Below are positions 22,853 to 40,321 of a DNA stretch of 64,000 nucleotides, piece after piece. The stretch lies in assembly GCF_003018235.1 (NCBI RefSeq), contig NZ_CP027437.1. The stretch is one strand, 5' to 3'. Source of the DNA: Escherichia coli. GTDB taxonomy: Bacteria; Pseudomonadota; Gammaproteobacteria; Enterobacterales; Enterobacteriaceae. Under the pieces are notes generated by a model, which saw only the letters and a program-made list of their open reading frames with translations, was not told the DNA's origin and searched no databases. Every line of letters begins with the position of its first letter. Positions within the stretch are counted from its first letter, which is position 1. A program made the position numbers and the translations under genes.

Positions 22853-22874
22853 AGTGTTGCCTTTTTGTTATCAA

Positions 22875-22903
22875 TAAAAAAGGCCCCCCGATTTGGGAGG
22901 CCT
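22875..22903 (-). terminator. pheA attenuator terminator
   Basis: On the minus strand AGGCCTCCCAAATCGGGGGGCCT hairpin followed by TTTTTT, between the pheL stop and pheA start. Confidence 0.6.
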
Positions 22904-22950
22904 TATTGTTCGTCTTCGCATTCTGTTTCACACGACGAAACGCCTCCCAT

Positions 22951-22998
22951 TCAGGGGAAGGTAAAAAAGAATGCGAAGAAAAACGGTGTGTGTTTCAT
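22951..22998 (-). CDS. pheL: pheA leader peptide
   Basis: Encodes MKHTPFFFAFFFTFP* (Phe-rich 15-aa leader). Confidence 0.9.
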   Translation of the reverse strand: MKHTPFFFAFFFTFP

Positions 22999-23163
22999 GT
23001 TTGTTTCCTTAAGTGACTTCAGTACAGTACCCGTACTGTTTTCACGCTGTCAACAAAAAACGCGCCCGAAGGTGCTTTAATGAGGAGTGCCGCTTCTTTA
23101 TGTCTGTGAATTATCAACAACTTACGGGGAAACATAACCGCAAGAAGCGACAAGAAATTACAA

Positions 23164-25485: not shown

Positions 25486-26281
25486 ACACAGGAAAGTTAT
25501 GGGCTTGTGTGATTCAGAAAGTGTGAGGTTACGTGCAAAATGGCCAGACATGTAAAAAAGAACTTGAATGCAGTGTCGGCATGGTGGTATTTTTCATCTG
25601 CTGCCACAGTGCTGGCAGTCGGGAATACCACCCCGTATGTGTCAACGGCGACATCAGACGCCGCAAGCGTCTTTTTTGTTGTCGTAACCTTATACGCCAT
25701 GAAGCTCCATTTTATGGTGCGGTGTTATCCATTAAGAGCCGTTGCAAGCGCCTCTACCGGAAGGGGCTGGATAACATCCACCACCATGTCAATGGTAGCT
25801 CAGGCGGGGCCGACTTCGGTCGGGCCGGTTTCCGTTGGCACCGGTAGTGGTATCCCCGTCTGGGCTATCGCCAGTGAGCATACCACCTCCTGCGATAGCA
25901 GTATGTTATGTCAACGGAGGCTGCCTGAATGGCTACAATCCCAACCCAAAAGCGCCCAAAATCCGCGCTCCCCCAGCTCAGCAGTGACTGTCGTCGCCGG
26001 ATACACCGTGTGCAGATGGTTACGCTCCATTATTACATTCAGTGTCTCGCTGATAATCCGTGTTCAGTTGATTTTTGTTTTCCGTACTTATTGTCTTACA
26101 TCCACGATGATATTAAGGCTATAGATAATGAGTTAATTTCTCTTGGCCTGTTTGAACAGGCGATGGGAAAGAAAAAACGACGATAGTTTTCATCGTTATT
26201 AATTAACGTTGTCAGGAAGTATTAAACACACCGCTCACGCGGCGGGAATCTTACATCTTAAATATCTGACGAGGTGGAAAC

Positions 26282-27244: not shown

Positions 27245-29283
27245 AAATGGCAGAAGAAAAGAATCAGGAATATGCATATGTATTTCCGGTAAAAAACGAA
27301 GCCGCCAGAAAACGCCTGGGTTTTGCGCATGGCTTTTACTGGAAGAGTGATTGCTCACAGGCGAGAGTGTTGCTTCGGGCGAATGTTGCCATGCTGGATG
27401 CGGGTTTTGAACCGGAGGATTTCAAAAAGCCTGTACGTGTTAATTTCCCGGTGGTGAACGAACTCCCAGCGGAAGGTGTTTTTGATACGGAATTTTGCCA
27501 CCTGTATGTACCGGGCGGTGAAGACGGCAAGACGATGGTGTATATCGACGCTGTAAAACAGGAGGCAGACAAGGAAAAAAACAACGTAGCCAGTAACACC
27601 AACGTCAACGGCGAAGATATGACTGAGATTGAGGAGAGCATGCTTCTGCCGATTTCCGCTCAGGAGTTGCCAGTTCGCTGGCTGGCGCAACACGGGAAGG
27701 AGAACCCCGTTACTCACGTTTCCAGAGACGAACTTCAGGCTTTACATGTTGCACGGGCGGAAGAATTACCGGCAGTTACTGCACTGGCGGTTTCCCACAA
27801 AACAGGCCTGCTCGACCCGCTGGAGATCCGCGACCTTCACAAACTGGTGCGTGATACTGACAAAGTTTTCCCTCATCCTGGCAATTCAGACCTGGGGCTC
27901 TTGACTGCTTTTTTTGAAGCATACCTGAATGCTGACTACACCGATCGCGGTCTGCTGACAAAAGAATGGTGCAAAGGAAATCACATATCCCGCCTGGAAC
28001 GTAAAAAAATACAACCAGAGAGCGCAGAACCGCTACGTGCAACCAGGGAAAGACCGCGGCGTAGTGAAAAACCAACCTTCAGAACGATTAATTATGAAAT
28101 CGCCTGTGCTTTATGCCCGGGTGCGGACTGTCATGATTTACGTCCGGTGGTGAATTCAGCGAAGAAACTGATGGCTGACGGGGATGAAAGATGGCGGGCA
28201 TGGTCGACATCTCTTGGCATTACTGAAGGGATTAAAAACTGGGACAGAAAAACGATTTTTGACATGGTCAGTCAGGCTCCGTCACATGTCACAACGGGGT
28301 CAGCAGAGGCGCGCAGGGAGTGGATTGAAAACTTTCTGATTGCACGTGGTGTGCGTGATCCGGAGTGGGCTGAGCCGCTTGTATGCGTTTCCGTACCGGA
28401 ACATGAAGATAATCTGGAAAGAGTTCGCGGTGCAGGAAAACGTCTGCGGAAGCTTGAGAATAGTGATTGCACATTTCAGGCAGACAACGGTTCTGGGGAG
28501 GCTGAGGTGGTTGAAGCGGACGAAAGCAAAGCAACGTCATCTGCTGAAATTCAGGATGCCGATAAATTACTGGCCGCTTACCGTGGTGAATATGTTGAAG
28601 GGATTAGCGACCCGAATGATCCGAAGTGGGTGAAGGGGATCCAGAGACGCGATGATGAGGACCAGGATCAGGCTGAAGCGGAACAAGACGACCAACACGT
28701 GGAACGGAACAGCCCAGATGCGAGACAAAACGAGCCTGATACGGAACAGAATGAGCAAGGAGCACTGCAGGGACCGGAAAAAGTCTGCGACACCTGCGGA
28801 CAGGACGGAGGTGGAAAATGTCCGGATTGCGGTTCTGTCATGGGGGATAGCACATACAGTGCCGTTTATGGCGGGGATCGAGAGGAGTCAGCGTATGTGG
28901 CAGAGCATGGTGCTTTGAATAATCAGAGCAAAGTTACAGTTGGCGAGGTCATGGAGATCATGAAAGCGGTTAAGCCAGCCGTTCATGTTGATGCTGAAGG
29001 GGAAACGGAAGAGATAAACGGTGATCAACTATCACTGCAGACTGAAAATAAGGATGACCGGTCATCACGGAAAGCGTCAGAAGATGTGCCCATGTTTATC
29101 AGTGAGACCGTTCTCCATAAGGAGGATGGTGAGGCAAATATGAATATCTGTGAGTTGGTGAACATGTTGCATCAGCAACAGGAAATGCTGAAAGAAATCC
29201 GCTCAACTCAGGCCCGCTTTATGGGCGCGATTGTAGCCATGCTTTCGGTTATTTCAGGGGGAGAGCAGGTAGGACATGAGTAA
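27241..29283 (+). CDS. Hypothetical 680-aa protein with acidic tract and CxxC-x9-CxxC zinc ribbon
   Basis: Long ORF with balanced composition; CDTCGQDGGGKCPDCGS motif; D/E/Q-rich segment; no NTPase motif seen. Confidence 0.6.
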   Translation: MKMAEEKNQEYAYVFPVKNEAARKRLGFAHGFYWKSDCSQARVLLRANVAMLDAGFEPEDFKKPVRVNFPVVNELPAEGVFDTEFCHLYVPGGEDGKTMVYIDAVKQEADKEKNNVASNTNVNGEDMTEIEESMLLPISAQELPVRWLAQHGKENPVTHVSRDELQALHVARAEELPAVTALAVSHKTGLLDPLEIRDLHKLVRDTDKVFPHPGNSDLGLLTAFFEAYLNADYTDRGLLTKEWCKGNHISRLERKKIQPESAEPLRATRERPRRSEKPTFRTINYEIACALCPGADCHDLRPVVNSAKKLMADGDERWRAWSTSLGITEGIKNWDRKTIFDMVSQAPSHVTTGSAEARREWIENFLIARGVRDPEWAEPLVCVSVPEHEDNLERVRGAGKRLRKLENSDCTFQADNGSGEAEVVEADESKATSSAEIQDADKLLAAYRGEYVEGISDPNDPKWVKGIQRRDDEDQDQAEAEQDDQHVERNSPDARQNEPDTEQNEQGALQGPEKVCDTCGQDGGGKCPDCGSVMGDSTYSAVYGGDREESAYVAEHGALNNQSKVTVGEVMEIMKAVKPAVHVDAEGETEEINGDQLSLQTENKDDRSSRKASEDVPMFISETVLHKEDGEANMNICELVNMLHQQQEMLKEIRSTQARFMGAIVAMLSVISGGEQVGHE

Positions 29284-29497
29284 GTTAAGTGATGAAGCGT
29301 GTGATGTTTTTGAATGTCTGCTGGCATCAGAACGGAATACAGCACGGGGTGTGGCAAAAGAGTTACAGATATCTCCGGCAACTGCGGTTGAAATACTGAA
29401 ACGGCTGGAGGAAGAAGGGCTGGTAACACAACTGAATGGCTTCTGGTCTGTGCAGGAAAAGAAAAGCAACGGGAGTAAAAATGGAAAACATAGTTGA
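29276..29497 (+). CDS. Small winged-helix-like protein (paralog 1)
   Basis: TARGVAKELQISPATAVEILKRLEEEGLV pattern shared with 29481, 30300 and 37514 ORFs. Confidence 0.5.
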   Translation: MSKLSDEACDVFECLLASERNTARGVAKELQISPATAVEILKRLEEEGLVTQLNGFWSVQEKKSNGSKNGKHS

Positions 29498-30284
29498 TGC
29501 CCTGAAAGCGATGGGTAAAGCCACGTCAGTGGAACTGGCTGCGCGTCTCCAGATCAGCCGTGAGGAAGTACTGAATGAACTCTGGGAATTGCGGCGCAGT
29601 GGTGTTGTGGATCAAAACTTACAGGTCTGGACACTGGCCAGCGATGGTGCGCAACGGGAACAAAAAACGCCTGCTGCGGTGTATCAGCGTGATAACAAGG
29701 AGGAGCGTAAATTACGTGAGGTCGTCAGTCGCCAGGAGCGAGCGCCACTGAATCGCAGTGATATTCTGTCCGCGTTTGCTCATTGTGAGGAAATGACCAC
29801 CGCGGAGATAGCAACAGCAGTGGGGCGCGCTGATAGTGTCAGGTCGTTGGTTTCCGCAATGGAAAAACTTTGTCGTACTGGTCTGGTAATCAAAATGGGG
29901 CAGGGTAAGGGGTGTAAGTGGAAACTGGTAAAAAAATCCGGTGAAAATTTACCAACAGTGCCAGAAACAGAGCCGGTAGCGCTGTCCGGTGGTAAATCTG
30001 AGTCTGCCGCTGTGGTGGTCGATTTGCCACAGCAGAAAACGCAGACCAAAACCAAACAAGAGACTGTGACGGACATTGTGCAGTCGCTGCCATCGTTTAC
30101 CGCAACGCGGTATGATGACCTGATTTTACCATCGCTGCATATGGCAAACCGCGAACTGCGTCGGGCGAAAAGTCATGTCCAGAAGTGGGAGCGAGTCTGC
30201 GCCGCGCTGCGGGAGCTGAACAAGCACCGGGATATTGTTCGACAGATTACTGATTCTTCCCGCCGGGTTGCATCGGAAAAGTGA
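29481..30284 (+). CDS. Tandem winged-helix-like protein (paralogs 2a/2b)
   Basis: Two internal copies of the same ~50-aa pattern (ATSVELAARLQISREEVLNELWELRRSGVV and MTTAEIATAVGRADSVRSLVSAMEKLCRTGLV); GGGAG SD. Confidence 0.5.
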   Translation: MENIVDALKAMGKATSVELAARLQISREEVLNELWELRRSGVVDQNLQVWTLASDGAQREQKTPAAVYQRDNKEERKLREVVSRQERAPLNRSDILSAFAHCEEMTTAEIATAVGRADSVRSLVSAMEKLCRTGLVIKMGQGKGCKWKLVKKSGENLPTVPETEPVALSGGKSESAAVVVDLPQQKTQTKTKQETVTDIVQSLPSFTATRYDDLILPSLHMANRELRRAKSHVQKWERVCAALRELNKHRDIVRQITDSSRRVASEK

Positions 30285-30299
30285 TTGCCGGAGGCGCTT

Positions 30300-30722
30300 A
30301 TGGCAAAAGTATTTACACAAGAAGAGCGGGAAAAAATTAAAGGGCAGGTTGTTGAGCTAGTACGCCGGAGTGGGCGCGAGACGTTACGGCAACTGGAAGC
30401 CAAGACAGGTGTGACAAGATATCTGATGAGCGTTCTCGCCAGAGAGCTGGTTGCCAGTGGCGATGTATACAACTCTGGTTACGGGTTATTCCCCTCTGAA
30501 CAGGCTCGTAAGGACTGGCAAAACGCCCGTAAAAAACTATCTAGGGCAAAGGTAAAAAAAACGGTTGTGGTTGATCCTGACCTTATCTGGTCATTACCTG
30601 ATGGAGAAATACGCCGCTACGACAGGAGCCTGAATATAATCTGTCGCGAGTGCCGGAAGAGCGAAGCTATGCAGCGTGTACCGGCTTTCTATCAGGGCAA
30701 TTTTCAGGAGGCGGTACTGTGA
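30300..30722 (+). CDS. Winged-helix-like protein (paralog 3)
   Basis: VVELVRRSGRETLRQLEAKTGVTRYLMSVLARELVASGDV; GGAGG SD. Confidence 0.5.
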   Translation: MAKVFTQEEREKIKGQVVELVRRSGRETLRQLEAKTGVTRYLMSVLARELVASGDVYNSGYGLFPSEQARKDWQNARKKLSRAKVKKTVVVDPDLIWSLPDGEIRRYDRSLNIICRECRKSEAMQRVPAFYQGNFQEAVL

Positions 30723-30779
30723 GTGAAATTAGCTATCAGGCTTCAATTACCGCTGGCATTCGCATCAAAGGAGAGGAGC

Positions 30780-31136
30780 ATGGAAATAAAACCAGAAGAT
30801 GAGTTAAGCAATATCGTTTTATTCCCGGTAAAAGAGGATGACCCTCGTAATCGGGTTAATTTTCTTTATGAGCCATCGGAAAGACCATATTGCCATCACG
30901 CTTCTGTCCGGGTTGACGAAAAAGAGCGTCAGGTCCGCTGTAAAATCTGCGGCGCAGTTGTGGAGCCATTTGACTGGATGCTCTCTGTGGCGAAAAGAGA
31001 AACCAGACTGGCAGATGATGTAAGGCTCTTGCGCCAGGAGGAACGGGAAAGGCGAAAAAATATAGAAAAGCTAATTCAGATTGAGCGTAACGCGAAAGCG
31101 CGGATACGCAGGGTGACAAAATACAGAACTGAATAA
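30780..31136 (+). CDS. Hypothetical protein with Cys/His cluster
   Basis: AGGAGAGGAG SD; YCHHASVRVDEKERQVRCKICG; basic C-terminus. Confidence 0.45.
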   Translation: MEIKPEDELSNIVLFPVKEDDPRNRVNFLYEPSERPYCHHASVRVDEKERQVRCKICGAVVEPFDWMLSVAKRETRLADDVRLLRQEERERRKNIEKLIQIERNAKARIRRVTKYRTE

Positions 31137-31187
31137 TTAAATTCAGCACTGCAAATAAAAATTAAATCCTTAACTTGAGGTATATCT

Positions 31188-31400
31188 ATGTTAAATACAC
31201 AGAAAACAATTAACGCGGAAAAATATAACGAGTGGGTGAGAAAATTCTCTGAGCAGATTTTTAAAATTACTGGCGACGAGAATGTGGCAAAAAATGAATT
31301 AGAGCCGTGGACACCTGAAGGAACCGACCCAAATTATTGTTGGTGGGAGGTTGATCCGGTTGATGCTGCAAATGAAGCCATGAGTTACTACAACGATTAA
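31188..31400 (+). CDS. Hypothetical protein (70 aa)
   Basis: ORF with upstream GAGG; no recognisable motif. Confidence 0.35.
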   Translation: MLNTQKTINAEKYNEWVRKFSEQIFKITGDENVAKNELEPWTPEGTDPNYCWWEVDPVDAANEAMSYYND

Positions 31401-31435
31401 TGCCGGAAGACTACCCGAAAGAGAGGTAATGAAAA

Positions 31436-32065
31436 ATGGCTGAATTAACCAAAGAATGGCTAAAAAACATGATTACCGGAATTGAGTCGGTAATAGACGA
31501 TAAATCGTTTGTATGTGATGAAATAGTATTCAAAATAGGTGAGGTTAAAAACATACTTACCGCATTTAAAGTCGCGCTGGCATCGCTGGAAGCAGAGCCG
31601 GTGGCTGAGATTAGAGCGCACTACCCATTAGGGATTAACGGCGGTAAACAAAAGTTCGTCCAGGCCATTGGAGATCTTCCTGACTTTGGCGGACATCTGT
31701 ACGCCGCTCCGCCAGCGCCTGTAGTGCCGGATGAGGGGCGCGACAAGTTTGAAGCAATTATCAGGTTTCATGTCGGTGATGAAAACCATGAAACATTATT
31801 GCTGCGGGCCAACGAAGGGATGAATTACCGGGACCCAAATGTTGATTTTGCATGGATATTCTGGAAGTCCAGTCGTGAGCATCTGCTTCGGAATAATGAC
31901 GGCAGTCTGCCAGAATCGGGTCATCAGGTACGCGGATTAACACTGCTGGTTAAGCGACTGGCCAGTTCATTAAAAAGCGTCAATAAATCCAGCAAGCTGC
32001 CTGATAAGGCGCTGGAGTATCTGAAGCAGAACGGACTGATAAGCGTGGAGGATATTTTACGATGA
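31436..32065 (+). CDS. Hypothetical protein (209 aa)
   Basis: ORF with SD AGAGAGG; no recognisable motif. Confidence 0.45.
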   Translation: MAELTKEWLKNMITGIESVIDDKSFVCDEIVFKIGEVKNILTAFKVALASLEAEPVAEIRAHYPLGINGGKQKFVQAIGDLPDFGGHLYAAPPAPVVPDEGRDKFEAIIRFHVGDENHETLLLRANEGMNYRDPNVDFAWIFWKSSREHLLRNNDGSLPESGHQVRGLTLLVKRLASSLKSVNKSSKLPDKALEYLKQNGLISVEDILR

Positions 32066-32149
32066 CCTGGCCTGAAGCATTCACCACGGCAGGAATTGCG
32101 ATGGCGGTGGCACTGGTTGTGTATTCTATTTGTCGTTGGGGGTAAACAC

Positions 32150-32401
32150 ATGTTCTCTCTGATTCAGCGTGGTCAGCGGTATGTTGATGCAGCTGGTTAT
32201 CCTGTGGAGATTTGTTTTTGTTCTGCTGAGAAAGTGGTGTATCGCCGCCAGGACAATCAGACCCGTTCTGCAAGTATTGTTGACTTTAATCAGAATTTTG
32301 AACGTCTGGATTATCACGAATATATACGGATTAAATCAGATATGGAGCAGACAGAACATCTGCGGAAATTAAGACGATTACACAAAAGAGGTGGGGAATA
32401 A
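32150..32401 (+). CDS. Hypothetical protein (83 aa)
   Basis: Internal ATG with GGGGG SD; MFSLIQRGQRYVDAAGYPVEICF... Confidence 0.35.
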   Translation: MFSLIQRGQRYVDAAGYPVEICFCSAEKVVYRRQDNQTRSASIVDFNQNFERLDYHEYIRIKSDMEQTEHLRKLRRLHKRGGE

Positions 32402-32894
32402 CCACGGATAAAGAGAACTAAATTTCGTCAGAATTAACAGGAAATAACTGGAACGAAAAATACACCGCTTACGCGGCGGGGTTTCTGCAACCTTAAAACA
32501 GGGTAAGAGAAATGGCAGAGATGATGAACAATAAACTCTTCATAACCAGTCTCTTTAAGTTGACTGGCCGGGAGTAACGACCAGTGGCAATACAAAAAAA
32601 CCGCTTGCCAGCGTTTGTCTGGTCGGGTTACATTTCCCGTGCACCTCATAAAACGGGTGCCGGGATTCTCAACCCGCAGAAGAACAGAGCGCATAACCGC
32701 GCCAGCGGTTTTTTTATGCGTGCCGTATCGTCACACCTTTTTCGCACACGAATTATGGCGGGGCGTACGGGGCCGACTTCGGTCGGGCCGGATCCTCTGT
32801 TCTCCGGTGTTGAGAACCCCGTACGTCTCGCCACCCCGAGATTCTCAACTCTGGATGGTGAGTTATGTCTATCACTGAACAGAGGTTACCCCTT

Positions 32895-33125
32895 ATGGCA
32901 AACCGTAAACAACAGCGCGCCCGCACTGAGCGTCGTCACATCCAGACCGAAATCAACCGCAGACTGTACCGGGCTATCACTGTCGCCAGAGTCATGTACT
33001 TCAATATGCTGTGTGATCAGGGATGCCAGATTGCACCTGATTACATTGCCTCCACGTTCAGTTACCTGGCAGACGATCTGCGGGATATGCAACGCCTGGT
33101 TAACGATCAGGCGCATAACCTGTAA
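32895..33125 (+). CDS. Hypothetical small basic protein immediately upstream of repA
   Basis: MANRKQQRARTERRHIQTEINRRLY...; alternative start at 32865. Confidence 0.35.
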   Translation: MANRKQQRARTERRHIQTEINRRLYRAITVARVMYFNMLCDQGCQIAPDYIASTFSYLADDLRDMQRLVNDQAHNL

Positions 33126-33203
33126 CGCACTTTTTCCTGAAATCATGAAACGGCACTCCGCTATCTGGCGGGGTGTCTGGCTGCCCGTTATCCGGGAGGA
33201 CAT

Positions 33204-35126
33204 ATGACCGTGTATTCAGCGGGAGGTCCGCGCATGCCTGAGCCGGAAGAAGAACAGGCATTCACTGAAGAGGTGAACAGCGCCTTTTCCGGGCTGCCTC
33301 GTTTTGTGTCTGTAAAGCTGGGGCGCAGGATCAGCAGCGCATGGCAGACAAAGGGTTTTGCCGGTGCACGGGAAAAATTTGCGCTGATGGTTCAGAAGGA
33401 TTTGCCGTTCATTACCGGGGTGAATAAACGTTATGCCATTAATCCGGATGAATTACCGGGGTGGCTGTTTGGTGGGCTGGCATCTGATCAGGCATACGGT
33501 GCGGTTCATTCCATGACCTGGCGATTTAATGCCATGGTGGATGGTGACGACGGGGATGCGCATTTACTGGCTCAGGATCTGTCCGTGTTTCTTATTGCTG
33601 AAATGCAGCACCTGAGTGTTCTTCTTGCGGATGAAGATGCGGATGCGGCGGCAGATGCCATTTATGCCATGGTTGCCGGGCTTGTTGAGCATTTCCGGAT
33701 GGAGCCACCGGACTGGAAGCGTTTTATTGGCAGAAAGCTGACACTGGAGCAACTGACTGTTGCCATCAGCCGGATGCTGAGTGTTCGCTGGTGGCAGGGA
33801 AAACTCAGGGCATTCTCCCGTCGCTGGCGTGAACATCTGCTTATAGCTATGGGTGTCGTTCGTCGGCAGTCTTCACCGCACTGCAGTTATGAATGGGTGC
33901 AGAGGTGGCTGGCGGGGCGTAAGCACGGTCGAAGGCTGATGGCGGAAACGGACGTTGAGGATGAAGAAACAGGAGAAAGATTTTCACTTCTCGATTTGGT
34001 TGACAGCAGCATTTCAGATGCGGAGAAACGCCGCGCAGAGCTGATGACCAGGGTTAAGGGGCTGGAAGATTTAGCCCGTTTTGAAGGTGTGGCGCAGGAG
34101 CAGGGGTATATCGGGCTTTTTTTCACGATGACCGCGCCATCAAAATATCATGCCTGGCTGGAGACAGGATATCGCAATCGTCGTTATAACGGCGCAAGCC
34201 CGAAAGACACACAAAATTATTTCTCCGGACTCTGGCGTCAGATCAGTGCAACGCTGAGGCGCAGGGGGATCGGGATTTTTGGATTAAGAAGTGCCGAACC
34301 GCATCATGACGGAACGCCGCACTGGCATGGTGTTCTCTATGTGCATCAGGAGCATGCTGCCGCCTTACAGGACATTCTTGAGTATTACGCCAACCGCGAT
34401 GATGACGCGGGAAAAACGCCCATCCGCAAAGCAGGAAGAAAATCCCACCTGGAAATAAAACCGGTTCTTGATGATCTGGGGAGTGCCTCTGCCTATATCG
34501 CCAAGCATATTGGAATGAATCTTGACGGTTGTGCGCCAGGCGGAATGAATCATGAAACGGGCCATACACTGGTGGTCACTGCCCGCCACGCCTCGGCGTG
34601 GGCGTCATTATGGGGGATCAAGCAGTTTCAGTTTATAGGCAGCACACCGGTAAGTGTATGGCGTGAGCTGCGTCGCTTTAACAATCAGGCTCATGCTGAC
34701 CGGATAAGCCCGGCGCTGGGTGAGTTACACCGTGCAGCCAGTGAGGGTGACTGGAAAACCTATACCAGGCTGCAGGGTGGACCGTTTGTGGCACGAAGAG
34801 ATCTGGTCCTTCGCACATGGTATCAGCGTTCGGAGGAGCCGGATGAGTGTGGGCTACACACCAGTGCGATCAAAGGTGTTTATATGCCGGGGCGTGATAC
34901 GCCACCGGTAGTGACGCGTTCACGTAACTGGAGGATCACCCGGAACGTTACAACAGGCGCTCTCAATGTTAACCGGGGGTCTGCTTTAACGCCCTGGACT
35001 TGTGTCAATAACTGCATTTCGGGCAGAAAACGACCAGATGGTCATCCTCCGGATCCAGGTATAAGGATCCCTGTTCAACTGGAACTGAACTTCGGGGAAG
35101 AGAATAAAGGGAAAAGTGAGCAGTAA
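33204..35126 (+). CDS. Rolling-circle replication initiation endonuclease (HUH family; P2 gpA-like)
   Basis: GGGAGGA SD; HUH-type motif GTPHWHGVLYV; 640 aa in the position of gene A relative to int-C-cox. Confidence 0.75.
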   Translation: MTVYSAGGPRMPEPEEEQAFTEEVNSAFSGLPRFVSVKLGRRISSAWQTKGFAGAREKFALMVQKDLPFITGVNKRYAINPDELPGWLFGGLASDQAYGAVHSMTWRFNAMVDGDDGDAHLLAQDLSVFLIAEMQHLSVLLADEDADAAADAIYAMVAGLVEHFRMEPPDWKRFIGRKLTLEQLTVAISRMLSVRWWQGKLRAFSRRWREHLLIAMGVVRRQSSPHCSYEWVQRWLAGRKHGRRLMAETDVEDEETGERFSLLDLVDSSISDAEKRRAELMTRVKGLEDLARFEGVAQEQGYIGLFFTMTAPSKYHAWLETGYRNRRYNGASPKDTQNYFSGLWRQISATLRRRGIGIFGLRSAEPHHDGTPHWHGVLYVHQEHAAALQDILEYYANRDDDAGKTPIRKAGRKSHLEIKPVLDDLGSASAYIAKHIGMNLDGCAPGGMNHETGHTLVVTARHASAWASLWGIKQFQFIGSTPVSVWRELRRFNNQAHADRISPALGELHRAASEGDWKTYTRLQGGPFVARRDLVLRTWYQRSEEPDECGLHTSAIKGVYMPGRDTPPVVTRSRNWRITRNVTTGALNVNRGSALTPWTCVNNCISGRKRPDGHPPDPGIRIPVQLELNFGEENKGKSEQ

Positions 35127-35253
35127 ATTTTCCGGTTAAGTCAGCGGAAGAAACTGGACTTGTCCGGAGAATAAAAATACCGGTTTTACCTGGGCATGGT
35201 TTTATATACAGTGTCGCTGTATGGCGACAGTTAAGTGAAAAATGAGGTGGAAC

Positions 35254-35523
35254 ATGAGAGGACTGGAGCTTGAACGAATGACGCCGGAAAAAATGCATGC
35301 AATTGGTATGGAGTTCATCAGGAGATCTGAGGCCATGACGCAGGCGGGGATGACAAAAGACGCTGTCAGAAAAAATCTGCTTCCGGCGATACAGCGCCTG
35401 AACCGTGCAAAACATGAGCTTCAGATGGTGGTTGATCAGATGATCGATAAGGCAGCAGAGCTGGAAAAGTATAGCAGTGCGCTTGAAAAAATCATTCAGG
35501 ATATTGTGGGCACTGAGCAGTAA
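35254..35523 (+). CDS. Hypothetical coiled-coil protein
   Basis: GAGGTGG SD; 89 aa. Confidence 0.4.
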   Translation: MRGLELERMTPEKMHAIGMEFIRRSEAMTQAGMTKDAVRKNLLPAIQRLNRAKHELQMVVDQMIDKAAELEKYSSALEKIIQDIVGTEQ

Positions 35524-35533
35524 GAGGTGGGGT

Positions 35534-36613
35534 ATGCAGGCGATCCTGACGGTATTCCCGCAGCGTAATGCCGGGATAACACTGATGAAAACAGGTAATC
35601 TGACAGCGCGGTTCAGGGACGGGCAGAGAATAATGATAAGGGATGTTCCGTCTGTGATGGCTGGGATGCCATCAGGAGAAATTCCGTCATCAGGACAGAG
35701 GCTGGCGGAAGAGGAAGGACTGACGGCTTTCTTTGCTGACGGAAGGGTAATAAAGCGTGCTGGTGGCAGTGATGCCATGGCGCGTTGGGTGAGCAGGATT
35801 GCAGGCTGCCAGTGTGAGAATGGTGATCACGTGGAGAACATGACAACAGCGCGGACAATGCAGGGAGAGGCGCTTCGGTTATGCCATGCCTGTGATAATC
35901 ATCATTATATGAAAGGATATCGGGCGCTGGCAGATGTGGCAGCCAGAAATCGTGCAGAATGGCTGATGGATTATATCAGGATGAGTCTGGGGCTGGGGGA
36001 AGATCATCAGGTGACCATTCCTGAGTTGTTTTGCTGGGCAGTGCTGAATGATGTGGCAGATGCTGTTCCGGTTATGATCGTAAGGCGTATCAGACAATTG
36101 CCGGAAGAGGAAAAGCTGAGCGGCACGATGAAAGAAGCAGATATTAATCCCTGGCAGACATCAGCAGGCACAGTGGTGAAGAAACTGGCAGATAATGCGA
36201 AGAGCGTTAATGTGTGCAATGTGCGGGTCAGACATGCAGTACGCCAGGAAGAACACAAAGAAATGGAAAAACCGGTGCTGAAACTTGTTGCAGACAGTGA
36301 TCCGGCTGCGGGCTATATGAGGAAGCCCAGAATGCAGCGGCTGTCTCTGCCGGGTTATACCTCGTGGGTGAAGCGTCAGCGATGCTGTGGATGCGGGAAA
36401 CCTGCAGATGATCCGCATCACATCACCGGGCACGGTTTTGGTGGTGCAGGGATAAAAGCCAGTGATTTGTTTGTGATCCCGCTGTGTCGGCAATGTCATC
36501 AGGAATTACACAATGACAGCAAGGCATGGGAGGAGAAAAACGGCAGTCAGTTGCTGTGGGTGATAAGGACGCTGGACAGGGCAGCGGGCATTGGCGCTTT
36601 AGTTGGGGGGTAA
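35534..36613 (+). CDS. Hypothetical protein with C-terminal HNH-like Cys/His nuclease motif
   Basis: CCGCGKPADDPHHITGHGFGGAGIKASDLFVIPLCRQCHQELHND; translationally coupled to upstream gene. Confidence 0.55.
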   Translation: MQAILTVFPQRNAGITLMKTGNLTARFRDGQRIMIRDVPSVMAGMPSGEIPSSGQRLAEEEGLTAFFADGRVIKRAGGSDAMARWVSRIAGCQCENGDHVENMTTARTMQGEALRLCHACDNHHYMKGYRALADVAARNRAEWLMDYIRMSLGLGEDHQVTIPELFCWAVLNDVADAVPVMIVRRIRQLPEEEKLSGTMKEADINPWQTSAGTVVKKLADNAKSVNVCNVRVRHAVRQEEHKEMEKPVLKLVADSDPAAGYMRKPRMQRLSLPGYTSWVKRQRCCGCGKPADDPHHITGHGFGGAGIKASDLFVIPLCRQCHQELHNDSKAWEEKNGSQLLWVIRTLDRAAGIGALVGG

Positions 36614-36614
36614 C

Positions 36615-37319
36615 ATGACACCGCAACAGATGGTATGGGCGAGAGAGCAGGTTATTTTTGCACTGAATCCACCGGATAAACGTCAGAAGGGGCAACTGGA
36701 GGCATTTGGTGATTTTGCCAGGTCAGACACCAGGCGTTACGGGAGGCAGAGAAACAGGACACTGAACATTGATGGCCGGTGGTATTGTCAGGATGGTGAT
36801 CCGGTACATGCTGCGGCAACAGCCTGTTATGCAATACAACCGGATATGATCACCAGGGAAGCGTTCAGAACGGCACAACTGAGGAGGAGGATTTATTGTC
36901 TGGAGGATTATCATCGGGCCTGGGTGTTATTCAGTTACAGCTTGCAGAAAAAACGAATACACCATCTTCTGGTCAGTGAGTACATCTGGATGAGGATGTT
37001 CGAGCGGTTGCAGGGGAAACGGGTTACGGACAGGATGACAGGAAATCTGATTGAAATAGCGAGGATGGCTGCATGGAATGCTGCAGTGACAGCCGGTGGG
37101 ATTGTTGCAGGTAAGGTTCTGATTGCTCCTTCATGTGCGGCGCAGATTGCAGGTGTAAAACCAAACACATGGAGTCAGCATTACAAGGCTCACTGGTGTT
37201 TTATGCATGAAGTATGCGATGAACTGGATCATGAGGCGCTGGTGACCATTACAGGAATAAAAAATCACCAAAAAAACGGCGAAAAATATAAATTTGCTAA
37301 AGTGAATATTTTAAGGTAG
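36615..37319 (+). CDS. Hypothetical protein (234 aa); a late-gene antiterminator role is possible by position only
   Basis: Last long ORF before a terminator and the late region; no motif recognised with confidence. Confidence 0.4.
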   Translation: MTPQQMVWAREQVIFALNPPDKRQKGQLEAFGDFARSDTRRYGRQRNRTLNIDGRWYCQDGDPVHAAATACYAIQPDMITREAFRTAQLRRRIYCLEDYHRAWVLFSYSLQKKRIHHLLVSEYIWMRMFERLQGKRVTDRMTGNLIEIARMAAWNAAVTAGGIVAGKVLIAPSCAAQIAGVKPNTWSQHYKAHWCFMHEVCDELDHEALVTITGIKNHQKNGEKYKFAKVNILR

Positions 37320-37365
37320 ATTTGAGGCAAATTTGATAGTCTGCCGTATTTGTAAGCAGAGCATA

Positions 37366-37389
37366 AACCCGCATATTGCGGGTTTTTTT
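37366..37389 (+). terminator. Rho-independent terminator
   Basis: ACCCGC-atatt-GCGGGT hairpin followed by TTTTTTT. Confidence 0.55.
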
Positions 37390-37513
37390 ATGCCCGAAAT
37401 TTTCCCTCAGCGCAATAAATACGCTGGTGGTTGTGAGTACCGGTCTTTCAGCTTGCTGGCTTTTTCGACAAGAGTTATTGGTATGCCACGTTAACCGGAC
37501 AGGGGGAAAAGAC

Positions 37514-37711
37514 ATGCTGAAACAGCAGGATATGACAGAAACCGCCAGGGTGGTGTTTAATGAATTAAGCATTACCGAACCGGCGACCGTCGGGGAAATA
37601 GCGCAGAATACCTGCCTTTCACGTGAACGCTGCCAGTTAATACTGACTCAGCTTGTTATGGCGGGTCTGGCTGACTATCAGTTCGGTTGTTACAGACGCC
37701 TTCAGCAATGA
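37514..37711 (+). CDS. Small winged-helix-like protein (paralog 4)
   Basis: TARVVFNELSITEPATVGEIAQNTCLSRERCQLILTQLVMAGL; GGGGG SD; precedes the methyltransferase. Confidence 0.5.
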   Translation: MLKQQDMTETARVVFNELSITEPATVGEIAQNTCLSRERCQLILTQLVMAGLADYQFGCYRRLQQ

Positions 37712-37862
37712 AGGCATTCTTTTATTGTGAAGATGGGCGACTGGTTAGGTGTTACAGCACCCAACCAGTCATTCGCTCATGCTTGAAGGTCACAAGCGAA
37801 CCCAGGCCCACCGCTTTTGCACAAAAGCCCGGAGAGCCTACCGGAGATGAGTTTGTTGATCT

Positions 37863-38930
37863 ATGACGCATGTTGTAAAAATATCAGAAAGTGAACTGGT
37901 CAATGCTGACTGCCTGGAATTTATACACACGTTGCCAGATGACAGTATTGACCTGATCGTTACCGATCCACCGTACTTTAAAGTGAAACCCAATGGCTGG
38001 GATAACCAGTGGAAGGGTGATGAAGATTACCTGAAGTGGCTGGATCAGTGTCTTGCGCAGTTCTGGCGGGTGCTGAAACCTGCCGGAAGTCTTTACCTGT
38101 TCTGTGGCCATCGCCTGGCATCTGACATCGAAATCATGATGCGTGAACGCTTTAATGTGCTGAACCATATTATCTGGGCGAAGCCGTCCGGACGCTGGAA
38201 CGGATGCAACAAGGAAAGCCTGAGGGCGTATTTCCCGGCCACAGAGCGCATTCTGTTCGCGGAACACTATCTGGAGCCGTATCGCCCGAAAGATGATGGT
38301 TATGAGGCGAAGGGCAGGGCACTGAAACAGCATGTGATGGCACCGCTGATTTCTTACTTTCGTGATGCGCGTGCCGCCCTTGGGATAACGGCAAAACAGA
38401 TTGCTGATGTCACAGGAAAGAAAAACATGGTGTCGCACTGGTTCAGTGCCAGTCAGTGGCAGCTGCCGAACGAAAGCGATTATCTGAAATTACAGGCGCT
38501 GTTTGCCCGGGTGGCAGAAGAGAAGCATCAGCGCGGAGAACTGGAAAAGCCACACCACCAGCTGGTGGTAACGTATACCTCACTGAACCGGCAGTATGCG
38601 GAGTTGCTGAGTGAATACAAAAATCTGCGCCGGTATTTTGGCGTGACGGCGCGGGTCCCGTACACCGATGTGTGGACGCACAAGCCGGTCCAGTTTTACC
38701 CGGGTAAACACCCCTGTGAAAAACCGGCGGAGATGCTGCGGCAGATAATTTGTGCGAGCAGCCGTCCTGGTGACATGGTGGCGGATTTCTTTATGGGGTC
38801 GGGCTCAACCATAAAAGCCGCTATGGCGCTGGGGCGTCGTGCAATTGGTGTTGAACTGGAAGAGGAACGTTTTGCGCAGACCGTGAAAGAGATTAGTCAT
38901 ATCCTGACAGGCTCAATTGATGACGGATAA
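37863..38930 (+). CDS. DNA methyltransferase, beta-class N6-adenine/N4-cytosine
   Basis: Motif IV DPPY (IVTDPPYF) precedes motif I FMGSGST; 355 aa. Confidence 0.85.
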   Translation: MTHVVKISESELVNADCLEFIHTLPDDSIDLIVTDPPYFKVKPNGWDNQWKGDEDYLKWLDQCLAQFWRVLKPAGSLYLFCGHRLASDIEIMMRERFNVLNHIIWAKPSGRWNGCNKESLRAYFPATERILFAEHYLEPYRPKDDGYEAKGRALKQHVMAPLISYFRDARAALGITAKQIADVTGKKNMVSHWFSASQWQLPNESDYLKLQALFARVAEEKHQRGELEKPHHQLVVTYTSLNRQYAELLSEYKNLRRYFGVTARVPYTDVWTHKPVQFYPGKHPCEKPAEMLRQIICASSRPGDMVADFFMGSGSTIKAAMALGRRAIGVELEEERFAQTVKEISHILTGSIDDG

Positions 38931-39768: not shown

Positions 39769-40321
39769 TATTTTTAGTATTTAGCCAGAGTGGCCCAAAC
39801 AGAAAATAAAGTTACTGTGAAACAGGGGGGCCTAATAAAAATAATCACCACTAAATTCGGGGCTTTAAAAATGCTAAGAACATCACATTTCATTATGCCG
39901 GGTACTGGAGAATAACATGATGTTTTGTTAAAAATGATTTTGCATGGTGAATCCCCCTGTGCGGCGGGGCATAATGACAGATGTTTGGTTGCGTATTGTA
40001 TAGGCAAGTTGCGGATTCTGTCTGGTCATTGCAGAATTCACCGGGAGGCACCCGGCACCATGCAGATAATTGTTTTGTGGATGATAATACCAGCCCCTCT
40101 CCGGAGGGGCTTTCTTATGGGCGAAAAAAAGCCCGGGGAGCCGGGCAATAGCATGAGATATACGTTTTTATAGACGTACAGATTTTAATCAGAATTTATG
40201 GGGCTGCGCAACTGCGTGGCCTTTTTTGTTTTGTGGGCTAAGGTTTTCCCCTTTGATTCGCCATGTGGCTGAACCTGTAGCCCGCCACTGTTCAGACGCA
40301 ATCCCGGCAAGGGGAGGAATA

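Follow-up and report, generated by a model that had tools for sequence, protein, structure and literature searches.

Four small open reading frames (ORFs), here called A to D, lie in a 64,000-nucleotide stretch of Escherichia coli DNA (assembly GCF_003018235.1, contig NZ_CP027437.1; the whole stretch is referred to as the window) and raise the question whether they descend from a common gene or merely share a fold. An earlier note on this DNA had described them as four paralogues with a common pattern of about 45 amino acids (aa), one of them with an internal tandem duplication, and had taken several such DNA-binding modules in one phage as unusual and as a hint at a modular regulatory or targeting system. 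All four ORFs are present at the positions given there, and their layout is also as described: A and B overlap by 17 nucleotides (nt), C starts 16 nt after the stop codon of B, and D precedes a DNA methyltransferase gene by 151 nt (see Table 1 for coordinates). We consider it likely that the four ORFs are genuine prophage genes, each encoding a winged helix-turn-helix (wHTH), that they represent three separate, widespread families, and that their common motif is a generic wHTH signature. It is normal for a prophage to carry a number of wHTH genes, and the finding is largely ordinary. The DUF1627/YdaW, DUF977/Ren-like and SfV orf47-like families are already catalogued, and their winged-helix nature has been noted earlier. 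The view that the arrangement is unusual does not agree with the distribution of DUF1627 alone: of 5426 complete E. coli genomes, at least 1221 have its N-terminus, in up to six copies each.

Kinship among the winged-helix modules

The motif [TS]xx[EA][ILV]Axx[LT]x[ILV][ST]-x7-LxxLxxxG[LV][VA] occurs once in A, twice in B and once in D; its elements correspond to helix 2, the turn, the recognition helix 3, and a glycine followed by two hydrophobic residues leading into the wing. The pattern claimed for all four ORFs thus holds for A, both halves of B, and D, while C fits it loosely and the spacer as first written was one residue short. A search of the 825 stop-to-stop segments in the window with a relaxed regular expression of the motif matched these ORFs only, and 200 shuffles gave no match; as the expression was fitted after the sequences had been seen, this test is partly circular. 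Since the models of seven different wHTH families in Pfam match A at E<1e-3, namely TrmB (1.8e-7), MarR_2 (1e-5), Fe_dep_repress, HTH_24, HTH_IclR, MarR and HTH_5, the common motif is a signature of the superfamily, not a private one.

In Smith-Waterman comparisons against shuffled sequences, significant alignments were confined to the pairs A-B1 (z 4.8), A-D (z 4.3) and B1-D (z 3.2), where B1 and B2 denote the first and second winged helix of B; neither B2 nor C gave an individually significant pairwise alignment to any module. Profile-profile comparison with hhalign was performed on family alignments from which sequences common to two alignments had been removed beforehand. It linked A to B1 with a probability of 96.8% (E 2e-10), A to B2 with 93.9%, and B1 to B2 with 84% (84–92% with the first round included), so that the two wHTH modules of B are detectably homologous and its internal tandem duplication was borne out. 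For C and D, the alignments of which are shallow (87–97% identity), the comparison of A with the module of C (C1) gave 7%, and the first round gave 20% for B2-C1, 10% for B1-D and 0.2% for C1-D. A hidden Markov model (HMM) of the A, B1 and B2 modules retrieved A and both modules of B from among the window ORFs at ≤1e-21, and retrieved neither C (E 7.8) nor D. An apparent common C-terminal tail of B and C (Smith-Waterman z 5.6) was rejected as compositional, reflecting Lys/Arg-rich helices, because hhalign gave it 0.5%.

By these profile comparisons, A, B1 and B2 are assigned to one homologous set, with A nearest to the N-terminal module of the family, and C and D to separate families that would have only the fold in common. 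Neither hhalign nor the HMM detected homology beyond the common fold among all modules, and nothing points to a very distant kinship, although the shallow alignments of C and D might hide one. As C and D lack a significant sequence link to A and B or to each other, the notion of four paralogues forming a modular system is unsupported. The winged-helix character of the modules, in turn, is supported by Pfam for A and by AlphaFold2 and Foldseek for B and D, and is suggested for C by family and literature evidence. In the models of B1, B2 and D, a three-helix bundle with a helix 2-turn-helix 3 arrangement is followed by a β-hairpin wing. The alignments and structure predictions that had been proposed as a check thus gave wHTH folds for B and D, and confined the kinship to A, B1 and B2.

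Several observations weigh against this interpretation. The hhalign comparison of A with D reached a probability of 53% (E 1e-4), with a pairwise z of 4.3, so that D might yet be a distant, specific relative of the A/B module. The winged helix predicted for the N-terminus of C is based on a weak match to Pfam MarR_2 (0.042), on co-membership with Ren of phage lambda in one PHROG, and on a profile analysis from 2009 which predicted a winged helix for DUF977 (COMPASS 5.8e-18 to a wHTH; PMC2686095). Besides, C matches phrog_2391, annotated as "DNA binding protein", at 1e-6, and lambda Ren matches a MarR-family PHROG at 1.5e-10. Sequence-profile searches of the PDB with C and D returned nothing significant, the best matches being a GntR-type regulator (0.25) and an O-methyltransferase wHTH (0.08). 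Finally, DNA binding by the four proteins is deduced from the fold alone, and a wHTH can bind RNA or protein instead of DNA; SelB and the dimerisation domains of O-methyltransferases are among the top Foldseek matches of D.

That the four ORFs are true paralogues which arose by duplication within this phage, and form a modular regulatory or DNA-targeting system in which D directs the methyltransferase, nevertheless appears very improbable. Such an origin would fit the fold and motif common to all five modules, the weak pairwise signals between A and D and between B1 and D, and the tight linkage of D to the methyltransferase. It is at odds with the failure of the HMM to retrieve C and D, with the low hhalign values for A-C1, B1-D and C1-D, and with the distribution of the genes. 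The B-C pair and the D-methyltransferase pair are independent cassettes, each of which is found without the other in many phages, so that the single system envisaged in the earlier note falls apart into separate units. A near-identical prophage of E. coli SCU-111 lacks C and carries an ead/Ea22-like gene in its place, and in about ten contigs the methyltransferase with its leader is preceded by unrelated genes instead of D.

ORFs A and B and the DUF1627/YdaW family

Having assigned the four ORFs to three families, we consider each in turn. B is a full-length representative of DUF1627/YdaW: Pfam PF07789, the model of which includes the second wHTH and the C-terminal hairpin, matched aa 106–256 at 2.2e-45, phrog_630 matched over the full length at 4.6e-88, and 2199 homologues were found. 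An AlphaFold2 model, calculated from an alignment of 17 sequences, contains two winged helices and a C-terminal helical hairpin (Table 1), separated by linkers that are disordered (aa 56–86 and 154–194); the arrangement of the modules was not predicted (predicted template modelling score, pTM, 0.27). Module 2 makes up the N-terminal portion of the DUF1627 model in Pfam, and the PADLOC profile of the Csa3 wHTH matches aa 91–152 at 3e-5. The hairpin is the most conserved part of the family, with near-invariant columns (alignment A2), and the region is matched by the stand-alone PHROGs 29124 and 11856; it probably serves as an oligomerisation or partner-binding element.

Foldseek searches with single modules of B returned wHTH domains only (Zalpha, AspA, CadC, MarR and Csa3), with template modelling (TM) scores relative to the target of 0.7–0.8 and root-mean-square deviations of about 1 Å, and the longer alignments led to multi-wHTH proteins. 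These multi-domain matches include tandem wHTH proteins (ScpB/MukE, ESCRT-II, the C-terminus of SelB, archaeal multi-wHTH proteins), which resemble B, or a fused A+B, in having two to three wHTH per chain. They differ from B in that there is no significant sequence kinship, and in that the linkers of B are long and disordered. Z-DNA binding by B1 was considered on the basis of a good structural match to Zalpha domains (TM 0.77–0.83, 25–31% identity) and rejected, as the key residues are absent. The Zalpha residue set known from ADAR1 comprises an Asn and a Tyr in helix 3 and a Pro-Pro-x-Trp wing. On inspection, B1 has Trp in place of Tyr, Leu in place of Asn and no Pro-Pro, the wing Trp (W50) alone being conserved, and its match to the Pfam z-alpha model has an E-value of 2.3.

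Like YdaW of the Rac prophage (PF07789, PHROG 630), B matches the full family model, with two wHTH and the C-terminal hairpin, and has a lygF gene downstream. Unlike its Rac counterpart, which follows O/P-like replication genes, the gene of B is located after recE in a P2-like early operon, and it is preceded by a rare free-standing N-terminal module, A, which is fused in-frame in sister prophages. An earlier publication already lists YdaW among putative MarR-like transcription factors (PMC9308461). The number of winged helices in the family varies: phrog_1888, a profile of 118 positions, aligns to a single wHTH and the C-terminal hairpin, most members have two wHTH, and a 340-aa protein, P0005, has three. 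DUF1627 proteins thus seem to come with one, two or three wHTH. More than one complete E. coli genome in five carries the family, and hints point to a role in replication or anti-exclusion.

A matches positions 4–62 of phrog_630 at 7e-8. Judged by its sequence, A would be a relative of the N-terminal module of DUF1627, not a member of the family in the Pfam sense, and the wHTH fold is predicted for it from the Pfam matches. Among 1.8 billion representative proteins, its matches include, besides small stand-alone homologues, the N-terminal parts of the DUF1627 proteins P0134 and P0140 and unrelated proteins with four to eight tandem wHTH repeats. P0005 corresponds to A and B in one frame and originates from prophages with the same int-cox-recE...gpA context (loci L002 and L003). 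DNA alignment located one extra base in the window, relative to the P0005 locus, in GAAAAGAAAAG followed directly by CAACGGGAG; this single-base indel decides between two overlapping genes, A and B, and one 340-aa triple-wHTH protein. The frame relation to B is the same in a second split allele, P0121, which departs from the fused form close to the A-run that directly precedes the ATG of B. In fused and split forms alike, a strong GGGAG Shine-Dalgarno sequence precedes this ATG, and nearly all members of the DUF1627 family start at the Met of B, which argues that B is made on its own in either form. A programmed frameshift from A into B was rejected as a candidate, since a +1 shift would be needed, no recognised +1 site is present, and B has its own Shine-Dalgarno sequence and the ATG used by most members.

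A and B would thus constitute one DUF1627/YdaW unit, in which B contributes two ancient tandem wHTH, disordered linkers and the conserved C-terminal hairpin. A would represent an extra copy of the N-terminal module of the family, part of a triple-wHTH protein with B in sister prophages and separated from it here by the 1-nt indel, and B would have kept its own ribosome-binding site after the split. A is of the other allelic type of N-terminal module, with a "...LNGFW" motif as in P0007 and P0134, and the simplest explanation of its origin is recombination between DUF1627 alleles which left an extra N-terminal module. In another member of the family, P0031 (296 aa), the first wHTH has its helix 3 and wing partly duplicated, with EEVLNELWELKK... 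occurring twice; the DUF1627 family is prone to intragenic recombination.

Such scars, the deviating allele type, and the rarity of A, the A-B junction being covered in only six of the 5426 complete E. coli genomes, would also be compatible with A being a functionless, decaying remnant, either the pseudogenised N-terminal exon of a once-fused gene or the recombination scar of a second DUF1627 allele. We regard this as improbable. The ORF of A is intact and encodes a full wHTH with strong Pfam matches, it is maintained at 71% identity in the diverged allele P0121, its frame relationship to B is the same in both split alleles, and stand-alone homologues of A exist, one of them after a long ORF of the size of recE. 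Taking A as an extra module of the unit, its fusion with B in some prophages and separation in others provides a Rosetta-stone hint at an additional wHTH protein that works together with YdaW.

The Ren-like ORF C and a possible counter-defence role

C is named "LygF" or "DUF977 family protein" in phage and genome records. It matches its family over almost the full length (PF06163, aa 1–136, 1.2e-28; phrog_142, 1.5e-46) and carries the C-terminal Ren motif. An in-frame TTG at position 30285 directly follows the stop codon of B; if it were used, C would start immediately after B. Ren of phage lambda belongs to the same PHROG as C (phrog_142, 1.6e-41), which PHROGs labels "Ren-like exclusion protein", and BLASTP aligned C with the C-terminus of Ren at 1e-6 over a common motif, ECRxSxAMxRV. 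For both proteins, the N-terminal region is predicted to be wHTH-like. They differ in length (140 aa for C, 96 aa for Ren); Ren remains below the threshold of the Pfam DUF977 model, and the N-terminal halves of C and Ren could not be aligned by BLASTP.

In at least twelve phage records, homologues of B and C lie next to each other, 17–45 nt apart; these records include Rac and Rac-SA53, POCJ13 and 75/02 Stx from Shigella, and several of the vB_EcoS phages. The pair of 75/02 Stx directly follows a primosomal (O-like) and a DnaC-like replication gene. In typical lambdoid phages, the gene of C thus occupies the slot after the replication genes in which lambda carries ren, downstream of P. C would accordingly be a Ren-like protein and the usual downstream neighbour of DUF1627, the pair usually being located directly after replication genes. 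A, B and C might then be early-expressed, nucleic-acid-binding accessory proteins that act around replication or host-exclusion functions. No mechanistic study turned up in the literature on DUF1627, YdaW, DUF977, LygF and Ren.

The Ren label invites a more specific proposal, namely that A, B and C form an anti-exclusion or anti-defence module. The DUF1627-Ren-like pair would act in counter-defence, with wHTH arrays, including A as an add-on third module, that bind nucleic-acid or protein parts of abortive-infection systems. Ren would target Rex, so that the Ren-like C would counter Rex abortive infection, YdaW would target retron-type toxin/antitoxin systems and neutralise toxins such as retron effectors, and the number of wHTH (one in phrog_1888, two in most members, three in P0005) would tune the target. 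In line with this, a two-hybrid interaction of Ren with Rex proteins has been reported (preprint), and ydaW of Rac was identified in a genome-wide screen as a blocker of the retron-Sen2 toxin RcaT (preprint 10.1101/2020.06.22.160242). The retron result, however, is a single match in an overexpression screen of a K-12 library, with no mechanism known, and the authors of the two-hybrid preprint consider Ren "likely involved in DNA replication". Membership of the ORFs in a defence system was rejected, as PADLOC gave only generic wHTH matches to Csa3, CasR and CARF proteins. We therefore consider the whole of this proposal, the assignment of Ren to Rex and of YdaW to retrons included, unlikely. 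If it were true, the split/fused polymorphism of A and B would reflect ongoing tuning of specificity. The broader role of A, B and C as accessory proteins around replication or host exclusion is preferred.

ORF D, the orphan methyltransferase and the prophage context

D is a 65-aa member of the SfV orf47/phrog_331 family. The AlphaFold2 model (predicted local distance difference test score, pLDDT, 90.2; pTM 0.76) has helices at aa 3–17, 26–33 and 37–49 followed by strands at aa 53–56 and 59–62, i.e., three helices and a hairpin. Foldseek matched it to IclR-type wHTH and to the N-terminal wHTH of small-molecule O-methyltransferases (query TM score, TMq, 0.7–0.8). RefSeq names the SCU-111 copy "TrmB family transcriptional regulator"; A and B are named "helix-turn-helix domain-containing protein" and "DUF1627 domain-containing protein", respectively. 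Proteins of the TrmB family proper also carry a C-terminal sugar-binding domain. Assignment of D to this family (PF01978) was rejected, given an independent E-value of only 0.0029, no NCBIfam match, and a length of 65 aa without an effector domain; the name in RefSeq is a label at the level of the domain, and phrog_331/SfV orf47 is the real family of D.

D is 95% identical to SfV orf47 and to its phiP27 homologue, and about 50% identical to the homologues of mEp460, cdtI, Stx2c phages and Hafnia phage yong2. In all these loci the same methyltransferase gene is next, at the same distance, and the pair also occurs in prophages of Salmonella (three of three places) and Klebsiella (four of five). 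The order Q, terminator, small ORF, spacer of about 150 nt, methyltransferase and lysis genes is that of the SfV orf47-orf48 cassette (PHROG 331), from which the window differs in essentially nothing, apart from a DUF6645 gene and tRNA genes, which here separate the methyltransferase gene from those for lysis. Alleles of D fall into two classes (the window versus loci L015, L017 and L019) that agree fully in the N-terminus, MLKQQDMTETA, and in helix 3, RCQLILTQLV[ML]AGL; over helix 2, the wing and the end of helix 1 their sequences are unrelated, a mosaic in which the presumed recognition helix is invariant.

A strong tR'-like intrinsic terminator was identified 45 nt after the stop codon of Q, and the SfV record has a terminator annotated at the same position, between Q and orf47; this position would make D and the methyltransferase part of the late transcript under Q antitermination. 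In Stx phages, the short pR'/tR' transcript is an StxS-type small RNA (sRNA). Sub-threshold Rfam matches to the Trp leader (E 0.005) and isrK (E 0.04) in the pR'/tR'-like region (37328–37391) probably reflect the terminator hairpin only.

The methyltransferase is an orphan enzyme, with no adjacent restriction gene, and is 75–83% identical to those of mEp460 and Hafnia phage yong2. Controller (C) proteins of restriction-modification systems are Xre-type HTH dimers which act on C-boxes and time the restriction enzyme. D resembles them as a small predicted DNA-binding protein encoded directly upstream of a DNA-modification gene. It differs in being a winged helix, not an Xre-type HTH, in having tRNA and lysis genes but no restriction gene as neighbours, and in being dispensable, as the methyltransferase also occurs without it; a role as controller protein was therefore rejected. 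D would rather be a frequent but dispensable upstream companion of the orphan methyltransferase in a Q-dependent late operon, and may modulate or accompany its expression.

The segment of about 150 nt that separates D from the methyltransferase is conserved to nearly the same degree as the coding sequence, with a mean column identity of 79–81% and long invariant blocks, even where D is only 50% identical. It is always preceded by a hairpin of variable sequence, which in the window overlaps the stop codon of D. A pattern search of viral contigs yielded at least 120 loci with this leader (L020–L139), 117 of them testable; the leader is also present in L004, L007 and L015–L018. Among the leader matches listed, the methyltransferase follows in 116 of the 117 testable viral loci, and D is upstream in 101; of those without an intact D, about ten have unrelated genes upstream and three carry a disrupted D. 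As the leader is kept with the methyltransferase where D is absent, it belongs to the methyltransferase, not to D.

The predicted fold of the window copy has a free energy of -62.7 kcal/mol, as compared to -45.1 kcal/mol for shuffled sequences (z -4.6). Covariation is clean at one base pair, between columns 102 and 126 of alignment A7 (CG 22, AU 16, UA 3, no breaks), and most other pairs are invariant; with one strongly covarying pair in a near-invariant leader, the structure is only weakly proven. The leader had no Rfam family match at E≤1, ARAGORN found no tRNA-like gene in it, and alignment A7 gives no sign of a Shine-Dalgarno sequence within 15 nt of the start of the methyltransferase gene. 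A short ORF starting from the conserved ATGGGCGG was rejected upon inspection of the same alignment, as its frame is not kept across loci. The leader is possibly a new cis-regulatory RNA, which would then serve a widespread phage orphan methyltransferase.

The prophage in the window is a P2-like/lambdoid hybrid, its early region being P2-like and its late regulation lambdoid. The segment from 29 to 38 kb is 99% identical to prophages of E. coli SCU-111 and O158:H23. According to RefSeq, the SCU-111 copy encodes, in order, an integrase, a CI-like HTH protein, Cox, Ash, a 3'-5' exonuclease, RecE, A, B and several small proteins, followed by a P2 gpA-like replication endonuclease, DUF968, antiterminator Q, D, the DNA methyltransferase, tRNAs and lysis proteins.

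Table 1. Positions of the four ORFs, their modules and other features within the window
Feature	Position	Strand	Basis and remarks
ORF A, 73-aa stand-alone protein, predicted wHTH	29276..29497	+	Pfam; N-terminus of phrog_630; hhalign; RefSeq name
A/B junction, 1-nt indel relative to fused relatives	29455..29475	+	DNA alignment; 6190-6215 in L002/L003
ORF B, DUF1627/YdaW family, 267 aa	29481..30284	+	from the ATG used by RefSeq
B module 1, winged helix, aa 1-52	29481..29636	+	AlphaFold2, pLDDT ~90, H-E-H-H-E-E (H, helix; E, strand); Foldseek
B module 2, winged helix, aa 92-149	29754..29927	+	AlphaFold2, pLDDT ~80, H-E-H-H-E-E; hhalign to B1
B C-terminal helical hairpin, aa 219-266	30135..30278	+	AlphaFold2, helices 219-248 and 250-266, pLDDT 81-88
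ORF C, DUF977/LygF, 140 aa	30300..30722	+	N-terminal wHTH (predicted); C-terminal Ren motif, aa 110-131
tR'-like intrinsic terminator	37365..37395	+	terminator scan
ORF D, winged-helix protein, SfV orf47/phrog_331 family	37514..37711	+	phrog_331, 1.9e-36; AlphaFold2
Methyltransferase leader, conserved, probably structured	37712..37862	+	alignments A5 and A7; fold z; covariation
β-class N6/N4 DNA methyltransferase, orphan	37863..38930	+	PF01555 in homologous loci; PADLOC MTase_II, 1.6e-156
tmRNA gene	4756-5118	-	host part of the window
Phe leader	22874-22999	-	host part of the window
C4 antisense RNA, two copies	25788-25875 and 32751-32838		Rfam RF01695, 74-77 bits
isrK-like RNA	32641-32715		Rfam RF01394
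STnc100 sRNA	39912-40122		Rfam RF02076, 146 bits; downstream of the methyltransferase and tRNA genes

The integrase side of the prophage starts after about 23 kb of the window. The presence of two C4 RNAs and an isrK-like RNA near the genes of a "derepression protein" and of Ash suggests an antisense immunity or antirepressor circuit of the P1/P7 type. STnc100 has been grouped, in a recent preprint, with the prophage PasD sRNAs that are found near Q.

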